A stretch of DNA of 14,967 bases from a virus, in UHGV virus genome UHGV-1809322. One strand, given 5' to 3'. The position numbers were made by a program, and so were the translations under genes. Below are positions 5,381-13,317 of the stretch, piece after piece; the first letter of the stretch is position 1, and each line of letters begins with the position of its first letter. A model generated the notes under the pieces. It was given only the letters and a program-made list of their open reading frames with translations. It made no database searches and was not told where the DNA came from.

Positions 5381-6910
5381 TTACTTGGGGTTCTGAATTT
5401 GTGTATACGTTGCTCTTGAGATAAACGGCGCATTATCACCAATTGACGTGATTAATACCGTCGGTATGCCATTTTTCAACTCATCTTCTTTACCCAGCGT
5501 CCAGGTAATTACAGCCGTGTTGTTTGCGATTGGGATCGCATTCACGCCAGGGAGTTTAGGTATATTCGTTAGCAACTCATTGGCTTCAATTTCCGCCTGA
5601 GTCTTCACAGTAGTCCATTTACCTGAAACTTCGTCCACTCGTTCTTTTATGTCAGCCAATGCAGGAAATGCCTGCTCTGTTAATTTGCCTGCTGCGTCTT
5701 TTACATAGGGTATATCGGCAAGACAACTAACATTTCTGGCAGAAATACACCCCACCGTTTCCGCTGCAGTGCTTAAAGTGGGATTACCTTTTACAATCTC
5801 ATTCACCGAATTTTGCGCATCCTGAATGAGTACGTTGCCTGAGGACTTGAGGAATGCGTCAGTTATTGCCTGCTCATCACCACCAGCTGCAGCAACAGCA
5901 ACTCCGCCTACAGCGCCCGCAATGGCGGCTTTCTTGACGACCTCTGTGATTGTGCCTGTCGGCATACCATTAACAATAGAACCGCCTTGTTGTTGCACCG
6001 CCGCAAGAACACCTGCACGTATAGCGGCATTTATGTCACCGGTCATTCGCAGGGTTTTCCATGATGCAATGGCTGCCGCGCCAGCCGGTCCTCCATAAAA
6101 CGCGGCTGCAGACGTAGCAGCCATATCCAGGACGTGACTTTCCTGAGTTGCTTTGAAAAAATTATCTTCAGTATTATGAAGTGGTGCCACTGTAGTGGAC
6201 CAGATCGCATCAATTATTTTACCTTCACGGGCCTGATTCTCGGCTTTCTTCAATAACTCATACTGTGCACTCAATTCATTCCCAGCAAAGTGCGCAATAG
6301 CTGTACCAGCTTCAGTAATATCGTTAAAACTTCTTTGAGCTTGATTGCTAATGTCTTTCCACGCTTTGTCGTAAGTGCTGGCAATATCATCGAACGCTTT
6401 TACAAACGTTCTCGTTGCATTATCGACTGTTTTCTTAACCACTTCGATTTGGCGGCTTGTTTCGCCAACAACTATTTTAGACACGGCACCAACTGTGTCT
6501 TTAAATGGGTCCGTGCCACTATTAGAACCAAATACCTGATCCCAAGTAGGTAAATTGGGCAGATTCGGTAGATTGGGTAAGTTAGGTAAATTAGGTAGAT
6601 TAGGTAAGTTGGGCAGATTGGGTAATTTAGGGAGATTTGGTAGTTGAGGAAGACCAGGAATATCCGGGAGACCCAAAAGGCCAAATTTTTGCATCTGCTG
6701 CAGATGCATTCGCTCAGAGATATTGCTTTCTGTAGTCTGTGTTGGTTGTGGCTGCTGAGGTAGTGAAGCAGAGGAATAGGCATAACCTGGTGAGCATATG
6801 ATTGTTATATTTGGAATCATCACTGTTTTTGCATCCTCTGCAAATGATAATCCCGGCCCCAGCGCAAGAGCGATTGCACTTAACTGCATAAACCTGTTGG
6901 TACTTTTCAT
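5381..6910 (-). CDS. Secreted repeat-containing protein (509 aa): signal peptide, (Leu-Pro-Asn)n proline-rich tandem repeat linker, large C-terminal domain with Gly/Ala-rich hydrophobic segments
   Basis: SD GGGGAGGG ~9 nt upstream of the ATG. Signal peptide MKSTNRFMQLSAIALALGPGLSFA followed by EDAK. Repeat GLPDIPGLPQLPNLPKLPNLPNLPNLPNLPNLPNLPNLPNLPT. Hydrophobic Gly/Ala-rich stretches (ATSAAAFYGGPAGAAAIASW; KKAAIAGAVGGVAVAAAGG). Confidence 0.75.
   Translation of the reverse strand: MKSTNRFMQLSAIALALGPGLSFAEDAKTVMIPNITIICSPGYAYSSASLPQQPQPTQTTESNISERMHLQQMQKFGLLGLPDIPGLPQLPNLPKLPNLPNLPNLPNLPNLPNLPNLPNLPTWDQVFGSNSGTDPFKDTVGAVSKIVVGETSRQIEVVKKTVDNATRTFVKAFDDIASTYDKAWKDISNQAQRSFNDITEAGTAIAHFAGNELSAQYELLKKAENQAREGKIIDAIWSTTVAPLHNTEDNFFKATQESHVLDMAATSAAAFYGGPAGAAAIASWKTLRMTGDINAAIRAGVLAAVQQQGGSIVNGMPTGTITEVVKKAAIAGAVGGVAVAAAGGDEQAITDAFLKSSGNVLIQDAQNSVNEIVKGNPTLSTAAETVGCISARNVSCLADIPYVKDAAGKLTEQAFPALADIKERVDEVSGKWTTVKTQAEIEANELLTNIPKLPGVNAIPIANNTAVITWTLGKEDELKNGIPTVLITSIGDNAPFISRATYTQIQNPK
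6549..6647 (-). repeat. Imperfect 9-bp tandem repeat array (~11 units, GGYARRTTN on the + strand) encoding the (LPN)n tract of the 509-aa protein
   Basis: Consecutive units ggtaaattg, ggcagattc, ggtagattg, ggtaagtta, ggtaaatta, ggtagatta, ggtaagttg, ggcagattg, ggtaattta, gggagattt, ggtagttga. Most unit-to-unit differences are synonymous in the minus-strand frame. Confidence 0.9.
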
Positions 6911-7024
6911 GATAGCAATCCCTCCCCAACCCCGAATTCGAATGGTTTCTGCGGAGAAAATTTATAGCCGCATAAATAATAATTACGTCAGGGTATTTTC
7001 CATTCCATAATAAAAAACTCTTAT

Positions 7025-7054
7025 AAACACTAAGCGATTCAGACTTTAGTGTTT
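7025..7054. promoter_or_regulatory. 9-bp perfect inverted repeat (AAACACTAA-N12-TTAGTGTTT) in the divergent intergenic region; candidate operator
   Basis: Lies between the divergently oriented 509-aa gene (-) and the first structural-operon gene (+). ATTCAGAC occurs twice nearby (7037-7045 region and 7069-7077 region). Confidence 0.35.
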
Positions 7055-7126
7055 GCTTCACGCTCTCAATTCAGACCGGTGCATTTGCGTTAGCCTCAGT
7101 CAAAATTCACTGCTGGATCACACGTT

Positions 7127-7411
7127 ATGCCCTTCATCGGAATACAAGGCTCTCTGTGCTCAGGCCATGGAGGCTTCCCTCCCCGGCCCGCTCTTTCTGG
7201 TGCCCCTCTGGTAACCATCAACGGAATTCCCGCCCTGGTAAATGGCAACCCCTTCGCCGTACACAGTGACGGTGACAGCGCCCACGGTGGCGTAGCTATC
7301 TCATCGCGCCCCTGGTGCACAATAAACGGGATTGGCGTGGTCTGTACCGGGGATCTCGTGTCGTGTGGTTCTGTCGTCATAACTGGCGATCCACTGGTCA
7401 CCATTTCATGA
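7127..7411 (+). CDS. PAAR-like repeat protein (94 aa); putative spike-tip (sharpening cone) protein of a contractile tail or injection apparatus
   Basis: Small protein with the repeated pattern typical of PAAR domains: C.GHGG, PLVTINGIPAL, GDSAHGG, TINGIGVVCTGDLVSCGSVVITGDPLVTI. SD is weak. Confidence 0.5.
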   Translation: MPFIGIQGSLCSGHGGFPPRPALSGAPLVTINGIPALVNGNPFAVHSDGDSAHGGVAISSRPWCTINGIGVVCTGDLVSCGSVVITGDPLVTIS

Positions 7412-7426
7412 GTTTACGAGGCCACT

Positions 7427-8182
7427 ATGCTCGATCAGCAATACCAAATTGACGCGTTTTACGCATTACGGGCCGCTGGTGGGTTAAAAACCCCGGAGTC
7501 CATTACGCTGTATCAGTCATCTATCACTCAGATCAACCGGCTGGTGGATGCAACAGCGGCACTCACACCAGATTCAATCCGATACCCCGCCGCTATACGC
7601 CCACTGGTATCCCGCCTTGATGCCATATCTGAAGACCTGCTGGATTCAGTAAAGCAAATTAAAGAGGTGATAAAACTGCTACAGGACCAGTCTGACCCGT
7701 CGGCCCTGCTAACCATTCAGATCGGCTGGGAGGTGTATTGCCGGTTCAACGAACTGACCGCTAACCCCGCAATTGTTGCGTTCATCGCGGATACAGAACT
7801 CCCGCAATCCATACTGACGACACTCACCAGTTTGTCCACGGCAGACCTGAATGCGTCCTTTGCGGTCCTGAACAACACAGTAATAGCGGGTGAGGGTACG
7901 CCACTGTTTGAGGTTCCTGCCGATGTGCTTGATGCTGCAGTGGACGCAATAACCGAATTTGAAGGCGATGTTCAGTCATACCAGGAATTGCTGGTGGCCG
8001 TAGAACGGGAGAAACAGGCGGCATTGACCAGCATTCAGATAGCAATGAGCTATTTCCAGAACGGCGTCACAGTGAGCATCCTCGATACCCTCTCACACGG
8101 CACATTTGTAGCGCCAGCTGTTGCCTGCATCGTACCTCAGACCGTGCTTGATGCGCTCGCTGCAGGGACCGTAACGGCGTAA
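7427..8182 (+). CDS. Hypothetical protein (251 aa), predicted largely helical; structural-module protein of unknown function
   Basis: Start 16 bp after the PAAR-like stop, with a GAGG SD. Ala/Leu/Thr-rich composition. No recognisable catalytic motif. Confidence 0.55.
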   Translation: MLDQQYQIDAFYALRAAGGLKTPESITLYQSSITQINRLVDATAALTPDSIRYPAAIRPLVSRLDAISEDLLDSVKQIKEVIKLLQDQSDPSALLTIQIGWEVYCRFNELTANPAIVAFIADTELPQSILTTLTSLSTADLNASFAVLNNTVIAGEGTPLFEVPADVLDAAVDAITEFEGDVQSYQELLVAVEREKQAALTSIQIAMSYFQNGVTVSILDTLSHGTFVAPAVACIVPQTVLDALAAGTVTA

Positions 8183-8272
8183 CGCCATAACTCCCAGCGG
8201 TGCACTTTCTCTATTCTGCTCGCGTCTTGTGCGTTGAGCGATAACGCGAGTTTGAATAGAAAAGAGGCCATC

Positions 8273-10087
8273 ATGTCAGATATTACCCCATATATGGATC
8301 AGGTCGCGGATATTCGCCAACGCGCCGCCCGCGTGCTCGCGTTTGCCAGCATTCCGCAATTCAAAGAAGGTGCATTCATCAAGGATCGAAAAGCCTGGGC
8401 TAAATCGATCGGCGAAGCCACTCACATGGACCCCCTTTTTGAATCCTACGGTCCAATTGTTTCCACCATTGTTGGTACCGCGTGGGCAAGCGCCCTGGCG
8501 GATTACGCTAACGAACGAGGTGAAATGCCGCGCGACGAACTGCTCGCCGCAGCGCATAAGGCCACGGAAAACCTGCTTCTGGAAGGCGCAAGTAAGTACA
8601 AAAACCAGAGCGTGCAGCTGCTGCTTGAAAGCGCGCAGAAAGATCTGAACGAAAACAAATTCCTGTTTGAGTCTGCGGATTCAGCCAACATTCCGGATCT
8701 GACCACCAGCCAGGGCATTATGCAGCTGGCTACGTTTGTGGCCATGATCCTGCCCGTTGCGCTCGGCGCACAGACCAGCGATGCGTGTACATTCGTACCG
8801 TGTGAGAAAGACCAGAACAAAATCTTCGAAATCATCAATATCGCCGGTAACTCATTCGGTGACCTGACCGCCGGTCAGGAAATTGATATGACCACCTCTG
8901 GTTATTACTCCCAGATGGCCCGTGTTCGCCTGTTCGCTGCAGATCAGCAGCCGAAGGGGACCAAACAGCGTCTGACATTCAAAGTTGAGGAAAGTGAGGG
9001 CGTTAAAGCGCCAATTCGCCCGAAACGTACCGTTCTGTACATCAACCGCAAGCCGACTGACCCGGACACAGGCAATAACGTGCTACTGCACAGTTTTGTG
9101 CATGTTGATAAAGACACGGGCGAAGAAAGCTCCATCACCCTCACCTGCCAGATCAACTATGACACAGGTGAGATCGCAGTTAACCCGTCCAACCCGTTCC
9201 CGGAAGGTTATGAGCTTGGCGTCGGTTACGAGCTGGACGTTGAAAAAGCACCGTCCCTTATCCCGACGATCAACCACAAAATGAAGGACTACCTGATTTA
9301 TCCTTCATTCTACGCGCTGGCAGCTGAACACACGCTGATTGCAGAACTGGAAATGCGCCGTGAGTTCAACTTTGAGTTGAGTTCCCTGTCATACCGTAGC
9401 CTGCGTGATTACATCTCGCACGAAATCGACATGATGCGCCTGTCCATCATGATCTGGCGTTGCATTCACGGTAGTAGCTATGATGTCGCCCTGCCGGATA
9501 GCCAGTTGTTTGAAAGCTGGTCTGGCCTACTGCGCAGTAAATTCAACCGGATTTCCGCCGACATGATTGACCGCACCCGGACCACCGGCGTAACTGGCAT
9601 GTACGCAGGTTCTGAAGCGTCGAATTTCATCAAGGCATTGCCGCCGACACTGTTCCAGCCAGCCCCGAATTACCGCCAGACGCCATATGTCCATTTCACG
9701 GGCACGCTCTTCGGTGTCTACAAAGTATTTGAGGTGCCACAGCCAATCTGTACGTCGCTGACGAAAAACCTCAAGAAAAACGGTGCTGAATTCAAGACCA
9801 ACAACATCCTCTGCTATGGCCGTGGTGATGGTATCGCTCAGGCGGGCTTTATTGCCGGTGATGCCATTCCGTTGATCCCGCTGGTACACGACACCACCCC
9901 GCAACTGCGCAACCGTACCACCATGTTCGGCAGCGCATTGAACATGATTCACCCACGCCGTGGTGAAGACTATTTCGAAATGCTGGAACTGACGTTCGAC
10001 AAAGCAGGCGCACTGGATCCCCGAAGCGGGAAATACATTGAACCTGCTCCGACCCCGGAACCTGAAGAAGTCACTCAGGCACCGTAA
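8273..10087 (+). CDS. Large hypothetical virion-module protein (~604 aa)
   Basis: Track ORF begins at a TTG at 8234. The ATG at 8273 is preceded by AAAAGAGG at optimal spacing and is the more plausible start (MSDITPYMDQ…). Long uninterrupted ORF with a Pro/Glu-rich C-terminal tail (EPAPTPEPEEVTQAP). Confidence 0.65.
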   Translation: MSDITPYMDQVADIRQRAARVLAFASIPQFKEGAFIKDRKAWAKSIGEATHMDPLFESYGPIVSTIVGTAWASALADYANERGEMPRDELLAAAHKATENLLLEGASKYKNQSVQLLLESAQKDLNENKFLFESADSANIPDLTTSQGIMQLATFVAMILPVALGAQTSDACTFVPCEKDQNKIFEIINIAGNSFGDLTAGQEIDMTTSGYYSQMARVRLFAADQQPKGTKQRLTFKVEESEGVKAPIRPKRTVLYINRKPTDPDTGNNVLLHSFVHVDKDTGEESSITLTCQINYDTGEIAVNPSNPFPEGYELGVGYELDVEKAPSLIPTINHKMKDYLIYPSFYALAAEHTLIAELEMRREFNFELSSLSYRSLRDYISHEIDMMRLSIMIWRCIHGSSYDVALPDSQLFESWSGLLRSKFNRISADMIDRTRTTGVTGMYAGSEASNFIKALPPTLFQPAPNYRQTPYVHFTGTLFGVYKVFEVPQPICTSLTKNLKKNGAEFKTNNILCYGRGDGIAQAGFIAGDAIPLIPLVHDTTPQLRNRTTMFGSALNMIHPRRGEDYFEMLELTFDKAGALDPRSGKYIEPAPTPEPEEVTQAP

Positions 10088-10107
10088 TTCAGCGAAATAT
10101 TCACAGC

Positions 10108-10126
10108 GCCCCGGCAAGGTCGGGGC
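10108..10126 (+). promoter_or_regulatory. GC-rich stem-loop (GCCCCG-gcaaggt-CGGGGC) just upstream of the SD of the next gene
   Basis: 6-bp all-GC stem with a 7-nt loop in the 50-bp intergenic gap, immediately 5' of the AGGAG SD for the gene starting at 10138. No U-tract, so not a classical terminator. Confidence 0.3.
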
Positions 10127-10137
10127 CAGGAGAAATC

Positions 10138-11910
10138 ATGGAAATTCCGTTTAGTCAGTCAAATGTGAGTAATGTGTCAATTGCTCGTGTTAACGCCGAA
10201 AACACCACGATCCTGAATGCGGGCGGTAACAGTTCTGTATTTGCGGGTATTGTCGTGTGTAACAGTGGCACACCGTATGAAGTGCTGGAAATTAACAGTA
10301 CCAATTTGTATACCAAACTGGGTGTACCAGCGCATCCCACCGATGGTTATTGCGCTGAACCTATGCGCCATCTGGAAGAGGCAGTCACGGGTGGCAAGGG
10401 CTATGTTGTGCGAGTCACCGCAGCCGATGCTAAATTCCCGCTTCTGAAATGGTCGATGCCTGCGGCGTCTGAACCGGCCCAGCCGCAGAATCCGACGGCT
10501 GAAGGCGCTACCGAGGGTACCAGTGAAAATGCAGCAGAAACACCAATCGTTGAAACGCCGAAGCTGAAAAATTCCGGCAAAAAGACAACTGGTGGCGCGT
10601 TACTGAAAGCGGGATCTGATACTGAAACTGCAGGTCCAATCCCCTACGCTATTAACACGAGCGCACTGGAATACGGCGCTGATGTATCAGCTAATTTCAG
10701 CGAAAACGACATCGTAATGCTGTATGTCATTGACGGTAATCCGTCGACGACACGTAACGTTCGATTCACGCCGGACGCATTCAACGATAAGCGCCTGGTT
10801 CTGACACTGACGGAAACCAGTGCGCTTGGTGTAGTCACCACCCTCGATAGCTATACGGTATCTCTGTATACCGACGTAACCGATGATCACGGCTCCCCGG
10901 CCTGGATTGAAACGCAACTGGAGAGTAAATCCCGTTATCTGCGTGCCGTAGCGAAACCTAACCCGACGGGCGATTACGCTGATGCCACGGTCCGCCTGGT
11001 GGCAGATAAGGGCGCCACATTCTTTGTGGGTGGCACGAACGGTGATCAGAACAACATTCCTGCCGAAAATTATGGGCGGGCACTGAAGGCGCTTCGTAAT
11101 ACACAGGCATATTACTCTGCAATGCTGGGACTGGGCTGTTACAGCCGTGCGGTGCTCAATGAGTTGAGTGAAATTGCGCGCAACCGTCGTATTGACGCGT
11201 TTTTCGACATTGATCCACGCCTTTCGTATGCTGAAGCCCTGGAAAAGAGTGATGAATACAACTTCATGGATCATGAACACATCGCTTTCTATCACTTCCC
11301 GTACACCTACCGCGACAAAACATCAAAAGCGACAACGGTCGCCGGTTTGTCAGGCACCGCATTCAGAGCTAAGGCTGCTGGCGTTCAAAAAATCCCGAGC
11401 ATCGGCGGTTGGCATTACTCCCCGGCAGGTGAAGAGCGCGCCGTTATCAATCGCGACAATATGAAGTGCGCGTCCTGGGCGGGTGAACCCGACTACGACA
11501 TGATGTACATCAAACGCATCAATAAAGTCGCGACGTCCCGCACTGGCGTGATGACGATTGACGACTCGCTGACGGCCTATCGTCGCGAGAACAGCCTGCG
11601 CCTACAGCACGTCAACTCTACGATGAACGCCATCGCGCGCGACCTGTACACCCTGTGGGGTTCAATTAAACATGACCCTGACAACGAGGTGCTAAACAAT
11701 CTCACGCGCGATACTCCCCGAGTCTTCGATAGCTACGTCGCCAGTAAAGCCCTCGTGCCTCCAACTGAGGACACAGCTGGTAATACTGACCCGTACATCA
11801 TTTCCTACGAACAAAACACCGATGATATGTGGACCGTCACATACAGTTGCTGCGTGACCGGTACAGCCCGCCGCATCGCTGGTATTCCGATCCTGTTGAG
11901 AAAAGGATAA
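10138..11910 (+). CDS. Putative contractile tail sheath protein (590 aa); assignment tentative
   Basis: Strong SD (CAGGAGAAATC-ATG). The N-terminal region (…NVSIARVNAENTTILNAGGNSSVFAGIVVCNSGTPYEVLEINSTNLY…) resembles the small-residue pattern I recall at sheath N-termini. Size is in the sheath range. It sits in an operon with a PAAR-like gene. Confidence 0.45.
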   Translation: MEIPFSQSNVSNVSIARVNAENTTILNAGGNSSVFAGIVVCNSGTPYEVLEINSTNLYTKLGVPAHPTDGYCAEPMRHLEEAVTGGKGYVVRVTAADAKFPLLKWSMPAASEPAQPQNPTAEGATEGTSENAAETPIVETPKLKNSGKKTTGGALLKAGSDTETAGPIPYAINTSALEYGADVSANFSENDIVMLYVIDGNPSTTRNVRFTPDAFNDKRLVLTLTETSALGVVTTLDSYTVSLYTDVTDDHGSPAWIETQLESKSRYLRAVAKPNPTGDYADATVRLVADKGATFFVGGTNGDQNNIPAENYGRALKALRNTQAYYSAMLGLGCYSRAVLNELSEIARNRRIDAFFDIDPRLSYAEALEKSDEYNFMDHEHIAFYHFPYTYRDKTSKATTVAGLSGTAFRAKAAGVQKIPSIGGWHYSPAGEERAVINRDNMKCASWAGEPDYDMMYIKRINKVATSRTGVMTIDDSLTAYRRENSLRLQHVNSTMNAIARDLYTLWGSIKHDPDNEVLNNLTRDTPRVFDSYVASKALVPPTEDTAGNTDPYIISYEQNTDDMWTVTYSCCVTGTARRIAGIPILLRKG

Positions 11911-11914
11911 TCCG

Positions 11915-12691
11915 ATGAACAAGTTTGAAACCGGCGCTTTTCAGGCGCGCGCGCAAATGCTGGTGGAGGGAGCACTTCCAAAGGGGGAAATAACACCCCC
12001 TCCGCAGCCAGTAGTCCCCCTGCCGCGTACCCTGATCACTGAAGCTGATGCAGATAACGCACTGCTGAATATGTTGCTTGAGGCTGTAGCCAAGAAATCC
12101 AGCCAGGACGGACGTGGCGAAGCAGCAGCTGCCGTTCTGGAGTGGGCGGAATCGGGTGACGCGACATGGGATTCATTCGATTCAATAGCGTTCGGCATTG
12201 CGCTGGAGATGGAAGGCTTTGATCTGGACGAAGTGGGCGAGGATGACATCACAGAAGATGTTATCAGCACTTACAACGATGTCCTCGCTGACATGGCTGA
12301 CGCTGCAGTCTTCTTTGGTGCCTCCAGTAGCGATGTCGCAACAATGATTGACGAAGAGGACGACGATGCCGCCGCCAGCGTCATGAACAGCATCGGTGAC
12401 ATTGATGACGATGAAGCCGAAGACCTGATCACCACCTTTACTGTGGGAGACGATATCTATGAGTCTATCCGGAAAACAGAAACAGACGATAGTCAGATGC
12501 TTCTTGAAGCTACTAAAAAAGTTGTTCGAAACGGGAAAGTCAAACTGATCAAAAAACGTATTCGCCCGAAAAAACTCAACAGCGCCCAGCGTTCCGCACT
12601 GAAAAAGGCACGTCGCAAAGCCAATACCAGTGCAGCGAAAGTAAAGCGTAAAAAGTCGATGAAACTACGCAGAAAACGTTTCGGCGGCTAA
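11915..12691 (+). CDS. Bipolar protein (258 aa): strongly acidic central region and polybasic C-terminal tail; candidate scaffold, internal or DNA-binding virion protein
   Basis: Acidic runs (EEDDDAAAS…DIDDDEAEDL) followed by a C-terminal ~45 aa rich in Lys/Arg (KKRIRPKKLNSAQRSALKKARRKANTSAAKVKRKKSMKLRRKRFGG). Start is 4 bp after the preceding stop. Confidence 0.65.
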   Translation: MNKFETGAFQARAQMLVEGALPKGEITPPPQPVVPLPRTLITEADADNALLNMLLEAVAKKSSQDGRGEAAAAVLEWAESGDATWDSFDSIAFGIALEMEGFDLDEVGEDDITEDVISTYNDVLADMADAAVFFGASSSDVATMIDEEDDDAAASVMNSIGDIDDDEAEDLITTFTVGDDIYESIRKTETDDSQMLLEATKKVVRNGKVKLIKKRIRPKKLNSAQRSALKKARRKANTSAAKVKRKKSMKLRRKRFGG

Positions 12692-12697
12692 TGCATC

Positions 12698-12722
12698 TGC
12701 CACCAGTCTGAGGCTGGTGGCA
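12698..12722 (+). promoter_or_regulatory. Intergenic stem-loop (GCCACCAG-N7-CTGGTGGC) after the 258-aa gene; possible partial terminator, mRNA processing or stability element
   Basis: 8-9 bp perfect stem with a 7-nt loop, 7 bp after the stop codon, with no following T-run. The right arm contains a Chi octamer (GCTGGTGG). Confidence 0.3.
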
Positions 12723-12741: not shown

Positions 12742-13317
12742 ATGGCGCAATACGGTGCGGTTTTCCCGGACGGGATTAGTGATTATCTGAAGTTGTACAT
12801 CACATCAGAAGATCTCTGCGTTGTCGGCTATATCGGCGAGGGTGCCTCGGCGCAACTGACAGCCAACTGGACCTCCCCTTATGAGGGGGATTCCGTCGGT
12901 TCAGTCGCGGGTGAAACATTTTCAAATCTGGTGCAGTCCATCACAAACCGGACGAGTGTTTCCCGACTGAACTCACTGATGGTGTGGCAAGGCTCGCAGC
13001 CGTTTGAATTTACCCTACCCGTTTATTTTCACGCTATTCATGACGCCAACATCGAAGTAAATGCGGCTATTGCGGCCCTGTGTGCGATGCAGGCTCCCCA
13101 ACTGAACGACACTATGCCATTGGGCCGGCGCCCTTATGTATGCACGCTCGACATAGGACGCAGATTCAAAATTGTTGATGTGGTTATCCAGAGTGTTGGT
13201 TTCGAACTGGATGCGCCACGTACTTCAGACGGTTACTACACGCATAACAACGTGAACCTGCAATGCAGTGCAATGGCCGTAACAAACCGTTCCGAAATGA
13301 AAAATTTATTTTTGTAA
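12742..13317 (+). CDS. Hypothetical structural-module protein (191 aa)
   Basis: Co-directional ORF in the operon, weak SD (GGAT). No recognisable motif. Confidence 0.55.
   Translation: MAQYGAVFPDGISDYLKLYITSEDLCVVGYIGEGASAQLTANWTSPYEGDSVGSVAGETFSNLVQSITNRTSVSRLNSLMVWQGSQPFEFTLPVYFHAIHDANIEVNAAIAALCAMQAPQLNDTMPLGRRPYVCTLDIGRRFKIVDVVIQSVGFELDAPRTSDGYYTHNNVNLQCSAMAVTNRSEMKNLFL

Follow-up and report, generated by a model that had tools for sequence, protein, structure and literature searches.

In phage P1, the major capsid protein Gp23 is encoded by gene 23, which is followed by gene 22 (sheath), gene 21, pmgG and bplB. In the P1 immI region (c4, icd, ant1/ant2), the b2 target of the c4 antisense RNA lies over the Shine-Dalgarno (SD) sequence of the first open reading frame (ORF), icd, which overlaps the antirepressor gene by 4 nt. 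Both arrangements recur in UHGV virus genome UHGV-1809322, a 14,967-nt stretch of viral DNA referred to here, at its full length, as the window, which judged by its sequence comes from a divergent P1-like phage or phage-plasmid seen in Escherichia coli draft assemblies. These assemblies and gut metagenome scaffolds hold identical or near-identical sequence; one scaffold, L021 (labels beginning with L denote compared loci), is collinear with the whole window (15 kb) and differs from it at 40 positions. The ORF track of the window is of the longest-ORF kind, opening each frame at the first ATG, GTG or TTG after a stop codon. It over-extends two genes, the homologue of P1 gene 23 and a minus-strand ORF at the icd position, and invents a start for a third, a DNA methyltransferase gene at the left end of the window. 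We hold with high confidence that correcting these three starts, taken together with their operon and promoter context, gives the best explanation of the locus.

Overshoot of the true start by lists of this kind would be expected in roughly half of genes, as three start-type codons (ATG, GTG and TTG) stand against three stop codons, and it is therefore unremarkable. The proposed mechanism is ordinary SD-led initiation, with no departure from known biology. The finding is an ordinary one because the corrections only undo the over-extension of the list and the public annotation of identical DNA already has the same starts, so that there is nothing new in them. They matter only for clean annotation and leave the knowledge of how P1-like phages work unchanged. 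Once they are made, the alignment of the capsid protein to the solved P1 Gp23 begins at residue 1, the first ORF of the immI-type operon gains a ribosome-binding site that c4 would mask, and the methyltransferase shows itself to be a fragment that the contig end and adapter sequence cut short.

Translation Start of the Major Capsid Gene

The major capsid protein gene of the window (8273-10087, positive strand) encodes a 604-aa homologue of P1 Gp23 and heads a late operon in the P1 order 23-22-21-pmgG-bplB, the downstream products matching PHROG profiles for a sheath, phrog_1053, a PmgG-like protein and a tail tube. The protein matches phrog_1014 (E = 5e-153) and, by tblastn, P1 gp23 with 44% identity over 97% of the query (E = 1e-159). 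A phmmer comparison with the cryo-EM structure of P1 Gp23 (9ukm_A; E = 9e-160) aligns residues 1-590 to residues 1-563, and with the 604-aa form residue 1 falls on residue 1. Full-length homology to P1 gene 23 (PDB 9ukm and 9vl4) is thus accompanied by the same downstream synteny. The start codon differs, being ATG here and TTG in P1, as does the length, with 604 aa here and 567 aa from the P1 CDS coordinates.

The ORF track opens this gene at TTG 8234-8236, which shares a frame with ATG 8273-8275 thirteen codons downstream and yields a mechanical ORF of 617 codons; another in-frame TTG lies at 8252. In the 617-aa form, the phrog_1014 match begins at residue 15. The strength of each candidate was taken as the energy of its anti-SD duplex with the 3′ end of 16S rRNA, which was +0.9 kcal/mol for TTG 8234, −2.5 kcal/mol for TTG 8252 and −5.8 kcal/mol for ATG 8273. 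The SD region AAAAGAGG (8260-8267, positive strand) has its GAGG core at 8264-8267, separated from ATG 8273 by five bases (CCATC), and relatives carry GAGG or GGGG at the equivalent place. A purine-rich complement of the anti-SD sequence is found 5-10 nt upstream of ATG 8273 and also of ATG 4363, the corrected start of the minus-strand ORF discussed below, and is not found at that distance from TTG 8234, TTG 8252 or ATG 4372. The original prediction that ATG 8273 is a better start than TTG 8234 is therefore borne out by SD energy, homologues and closed upstream frames, with the amendment that the spacer it gave as about 6 nt is 5 nt.

All 39 homologues compared (29-98% identical) begin at or close to the residue aligned with ATG 8273, mostly with MS(D/K/N), and none of them has the 13-residue N-terminal extension. 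The P1 record itself starts gene 23 at a TTG in exact alignment with ATG 8273 (MSNLREYQNRIADI in comparison with MSDITPYMDQVADI), and the exact 604-aa product is deposited at NCBI as HIH8281340.1. Translation of the capsid gene most likely starts at ATG 8273, directed by the GAGG five bases upstream, which would leave TTG 8234 and TTG 8252 untranslated, in a leader that follows a probable Lpa-type late promoter.

This promoter-like element lies at 8199-8217 on the positive strand and reads GGTGCACTT-N4-TATTCT. In a published description, the P1 late promoters are 9-bp inverted repeats to which Lpa binds (PMC10695390). The element of the window shares its layout and its position ahead of gene 23 with the annotated P1 promoter LP23, AAGTGACTT-N4-TAAAAT; both elements consist of an Lpa-box-like 9-mer, four intervening bases and a TAnnnT hexamer at a similar upstream distance, although the box of the window, GGTGCACTT, differs from that of P1, AAGTGACTT. 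The element before the capsid gene has an exact match in the loci of six relatives. The motif is not enriched in the window, where two matches with at most two mismatches were found and 63 of 200 shuffles did as well. Because this count is not above chance, the call is drawn from position, conservation in relatives and the analogy to P1, by which 8199-8217 is a probable P1-type Lpa-dependent late promoter. A one-mismatch copy, GGTGCATTT-N4-TAGCCT, is located at 7078-7096 on the positive strand, approximately 30 nt before the PAAR gene, and it likewise resembles the Lpa-dependent late promoters of P1.

A conserved hairpin in the 5′ untranslated region around TTG 8234 (GCGTT...AACGC) was considered and rejected: RNAalifold gave seven pairs with no compensatory change, and the single-sequence fold was no better than shuffles (z = +0.63).

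Start Codon of the 159-Residue ORF

The second over-extended gene is a minus-strand ORF at 3884-4363, encoding 159 aa when translated from ATG 4363 and 162 aa from ATG 4372, the start given by the ORF track. The minus strand reads AGAAGAGG-ATG-CCTGTC-ATG-GCA, in which ATG 4372-4370 touches the SD core GAGG (4376-4373) and ATG 4363-4361 follows it after 9 nt. Anti-SD duplex energies are −5.2 kcal/mol for ATG 4372, with its zero-nucleotide spacer, and −5.8 kcal/mol for ATG 4363. It had been proposed from the sequence that ATG 4363 has the better SD spacing, and the spacers of 9 nt and 0 nt agree with this, as do the lack of the upstream ATG in the related copies and the presence of the 159-aa form at NCBI, where the exact product is HIH8281336.1.

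Of 19 homologues, 18 are 159 aa long and the remaining one is a shorter, 133-aa form; the N-terminus MAT(T/I)PTQ is present in all 13 that were aligned. The upstream region was further compared in seven related copies (one from E. coli, one from Enterobacter kobei, four on one Enterobacter cloacae contig, and P1 icd, included for geometry). The relatives carry GGAG or GAGG with a 9-nt spacer, and P1 icd carries GAGG with 8 nt. Their spacer reads ACTGCC(A/T)(T/C)(C/T), compared with ATGCCTGTC in the window, and the upstream ATG is absent from all seven. We infer that the ORF is translated from ATG 4363 and that ATG 4372 arose by a lineage-specific substitution inside the spacer between SD and start.

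The homologue in an E. kobei plasmid (strain 2024CK-00368; L003 3001-3003) has ATC in place of the start codon ATG, and PGAP gives only a truncated ORF of 84 aa; this may be start-codon loss or a sequencing error. Within the window, 27 of the 40 differences from L021 crowd into 240 bp (4058-4298) inside the 159-aa ORF, a clustering suggestive of gene conversion among paralogues or of a chimeric assembly.

The c4 Antisense RNA and immI-Type Module

The 159-aa ORF belongs to a complete P1-type immI module on the minus strand (3084-4618), comprising an a1/b1 leader, c4, the a2 and b2 targets, the ORF itself and an overlapping antirepressor gene. The c4 antisense RNA gene (4418-4505, minus strand) matches Rfam RF01695 over its full length with 71 bits, above the gathering threshold of 45 (E = 1.8e-12). 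The leader (4530-4618, minus strand) contains the decoy targets a1 (4580-4574) and b1 (4566-4557) and a terminator-like hairpin; it matches RF01394 (isrK) with 62.4 bits (gathering threshold 50) and RF03163 (c4-a1b1) with 35.3 bits, below the gathering threshold.

Target b2 (UCACAGAAG; 4376-4384, minus strand) is a 9-nt perfect complement of c4 loop nt 45-53, CUUCUGUGA, and runs into the SD sequence, thereby overlapping the ribosome-binding site of the 159-aa ORF. Target a2 (UUGCAAC; 4408-4414, minus strand) is a 7-nt perfect complement of c4 nt 60-66 (GUUGCAA), and both targets recur upstream of c4. The loop and b2 vary in sequence among five relatives and P1 but keep their complementarity, and in each of these, P1 icd included, the ATG comes 10-12 nt after the end of b2. 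The order and spacing of a1, b1, a2 and b2 match the annotated P1 sites, with 23 nt between a2 and b2 here and 22 nt in P1. The c4 RNA (4505-4418) would pair with b2 (4384-4376) and mask the ribosome-binding site of the 159-aa ORF, and its loop and target sequences differ from those of P1, implying on sequence grounds a different immunity specificity.

The antirepressor gene (3084-3887, minus strand) encodes 267 aa, matches phrog_129 and phrog_1726, and shares only part of P1 Ant1 (52% identity over 125 aa). Its ATG overlaps the stop codon of the 159-aa ORF by 4 nt (ATGA, 3887-3884), as in icd/ant1 of P1, and such an overlap would be compatible with translational coupling. If P1 c4/icd/ant is taken as the model, pairing of c4 with b2 would control both the 159-aa ORF and this downstream gene. 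Because the layout of c4 and its targets and the ATGA overlap with the antirepressor gene match P1, the ORF is assigned to the icd position of an immI-type operon. Its product is unrelated to the 73-aa Icd of P1: BLASTP against P1 Icd gave E = 0.26 over 10 residues, and searches of Pfam and PHROG gave no family match. A module of this type with a first gene other than icd, and the multiplication of that module, are more interesting than the start corrections. We put forward tentatively, at somewhat short of even chances, that the 159-aa ORF is an uncharacterised replacement of Icd that heads a c4-controlled antirepressor operon and occurs in multi-copy modules; if true, one phage-plasmid would carry several heteroimmune antisense-RNA immunity circuits.

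The isrK-like leader, c4 and the 159-aa ORF are found together four times on one 95,253-bp IMG/VR contig of an Enterobacter cloacae phage-plasmid (L008-L011), where the pairs of c4 loop and target differ among the four copies and two loci have an extra c4 copy. E. coli assemblies also carry several paralogues of the 159-aa protein. In the sixth related copy compared, an E. coli locus (L004 9864-10000; GCA_054791515.1), the b2 position lacks any perfect match of at least 6 nt complementary to the c4 b′ loop; the nearest match by eye differs by one base (possibly a 1-nt indel) and the a2 complement is intact, so this b2 may be a weakened c4 target.

Truncated Methyltransferase Gene

The left end of the window carries the 3′ part of a gene encoding a fused C5-cytosine/N6-adenine DNA methyltransferase (16-2316, positive strand). 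Frame 1 is free of stop codons from nt 1 to nt 2313 and ends at the stop 2314-2316. Its translation matches PF00145 (C5-cytosine methylase) followed by PF02086 (D12-class N6-adenine methyltransferase; E = 4e-47, profile positions 1-253 of 253) and includes a DPPY motif; the C5 part holds motif VI (ENV) together with the C-terminal motifs. On scaffold L021 the gene is complete (872 aa) and begins 303 nt left of the window; the GSVCSGIEA and GGTPCQ motifs, missing from the window, lie within the 101 upstream residues on that scaffold. The ORF of the window would accordingly be the last 766 codons (107-872) of an 872-codon C5/Dam fusion gene that is truncated by the contig end, its real ATG lying, as read from L021, 303 nt beyond.

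GTG 82-84 (positive strand), with which the ORF track opens this gene, is codon 129 of the full gene, an internal valine codon encoding the second V of ENVPGV (nt 67-84, within ENVPGVLS), the C5-methyltransferase motif VI; the homologue from E. albertii is 68% identical across and upstream of this codon. The earlier statement that the ORF is open to the window edge and that GTG 82 is not a start at all thus holds, with one refinement at the very edge. The first 15 nt of the window, ACGCTCTTCCGATCT, differ from L021 (GATTTAGCAAATGCC) at 13 of 15 bases, which make up 13 of the 40 differences between the two, and are an Illumina adapter remnant, which we take to be the tail of the TruSeq adapter. 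Because these bases are adapter and not phage DNA, the open frame begins with five artefactual codons, and real sequence starts at nt 16.

The homologue on E. albertii p2RM10705 (QTA05241.1) has the same domain order, C5 followed by D12-class N6-adenine, and is 68% identical around motif VI and 51% identical across the C-terminal 380 aa. It is a 1,013-aa protein (L012 1615-4656) with a Hint and LAGLIDADG intein in the C5 domain, whereas the version in the window has no intein and contains a variable region of approximately 245 aa (residues 147-393) that is absent from the E. albertii protein. The E. kobei relatives have only the Dam part, of 299 aa.

Alternative Start Codons

The alternative that survives best, which we nevertheless consider improbable, is that the minus-strand ORF is translated from ATG 4372, giving a 162-aa product with the N-terminus MPVMATT, or from both ATGs. 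ATG 4372 is canonical, in frame and only three codons upstream, and b2 ends 3 nt before it, so that c4 would mask it as well as ATG 4363. SD-led initiation is sterically unfavourable when no nucleotide separates GAGG from the start codon, which disfavours ATG 4372, and the 162-aa form was not found in a collection of 15 billion proteins; the absence of this codon from the related copies and the near-uniform length of the homologues point the same way, to initiation at ATG 4363.

Still less probable, in our judgement very much so, is translation of the capsid protein wholly or partly from TTG 8234 or TTG 8252, which would add 13 or 7 N-terminal residues and place the peptides MSDNASLNRKEAI and SDNASLNRKEAI in the extended form. 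The frame upstream of ATG 8273 is indeed open for 31 codons both in the window and in L013, the closest relative (98% identical), and the TTG start of P1 gene 23 indicates that TTG initiation occurs in this gene family. Neither TTG, on the other hand, is preceded by an SD sequence, and no homologue has the extension. In L016, L017, L002 and L018 (85% identical) and in L015 (55%), a TAA closes the upstream frame one to six codons before the ATG, the position of TTG 8234 is TTT in L017, and the block between this TTG and the capsid ATG has indels among relatives that are not multiples of three. On account of these three features, the block is read as conserved non-coding DNA. A genuine late promoter at 8199-8217 would, in addition, put TTG 8234 about 10 nt from where the mRNA begins. 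Conservation of the upstream codons in homologues, which the original prediction had named as a check, was thus looked at for both genes, and the codons are not kept as coding sequence, ATG 4372 being missing from the related copies.

That prediction had also named N-terminal proteomics. In P1, gp23 is reported to have a scaffold-like N-terminal region of about 120 residues, and the prohead protease cuts off the first 124, which are absent from the virion (PMC12810830); N-terminal proteomics on virions cannot settle the capsid start for this reason. The N-terminal region of the capsid protein of the window aligns with that of P1 Gp23, and by analogy it would be cleaved by a prohead protease here also.

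Some observations weigh against the corrected starts. L013 has a capsid upstream region identical to that of the window and is uninformative on the choice of start, and in P1 the gene 23 frame likewise stays open for 19 codons ahead of the start, with an in-frame TTG, so an open frame is not unique to the window. Some paralogues of the 159-aa gene carry a 13-residue extension at NCBI (172 aa), and pipelines have not always agreed. Annotated starts of homologues come from gene callers and alone are not independent of SD-based reasoning; for this reason, the independent part of the evidence for ATG 8273 and ATG 4363 consists of the closure of upstream frames and the lack of the upstream ATG. The 172-aa E. 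coli paralogues at NCBI (P0065, P0074 and P0076) have the extension MMMVVQLLSETAT/A, which, judged against the leaders of the related copies, appears to read through the leader and a GGAG SD sequence and is probably the same kind of over-extension in the public annotation.

The suggestion that GTG 82 is a genuine internal start of a shorter methyltransferase isoform (approximately 744 aa) can be set aside almost entirely: it is the first start-type codon of the open frame within the window and has a weak GGGAA 12 nt upstream (−4.2 kcal/mol), but it lies inside a conserved motif of an uninterrupted gene, its SD spacing of 12-13 nt is poor, and its product would be without motif I and the PCQ region, which are upstream in L021.

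Genomic Context and Nearest Relatives

The structural-gene block of the window keeps the gene order of P1, as identified by PHROG profiles and tblastn; the capsid protein, the sheath and the 159-aa ORF all had no Pfam match, and PHROGs were needed for the structural identifications. Upstream of the capsid gene are a upfC-like PAAR protein gene (7127-7411) and a upfB-like gene (7427-8182), and downstream are gene 22, encoding the sheath (10138-11910), gene 21 (phrog_1053; 11915-12691), pmgG (12742-13317) and bplB, encoding the tail tube (13330-13830). Protein identity to P1 is only approximately 44%. In the stretch 7427-8275 the capsid gene directly follows the upfB homologue, whereas in P1 the ppfA, mlp and upfA genes and the oriR-repA-parAB plasmid maintenance module sit between upfB and gene 23.

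At the DNA level, megablast of positions 7400-12700 against deposited phages and of positions 3000-10200 against 5,426 complete E. coli genomes gave no match. Plasmid matches were limited to E. kobei plasmids (74-75% identity) and a short methyltransferase stretch in E. albertii, and the nearest complete replicons are two of these E. kobei plasmids, with approximately 74% DNA identity. At the DNA level, the region between the methyltransferase and PAAR genes did not align to the E. kobei relatives, whose immI-type module is located elsewhere on the plasmid. In the window, this region is filled by the immI module and by the genes for two apparently secreted proteins of 197 aa and 509 aa (4758-6910, minus strand), which have no family match. 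The 509-aa gene contains approximately 11 copies of a 9-bp tandem repeat (6547-6643) coding for (LPN)n.

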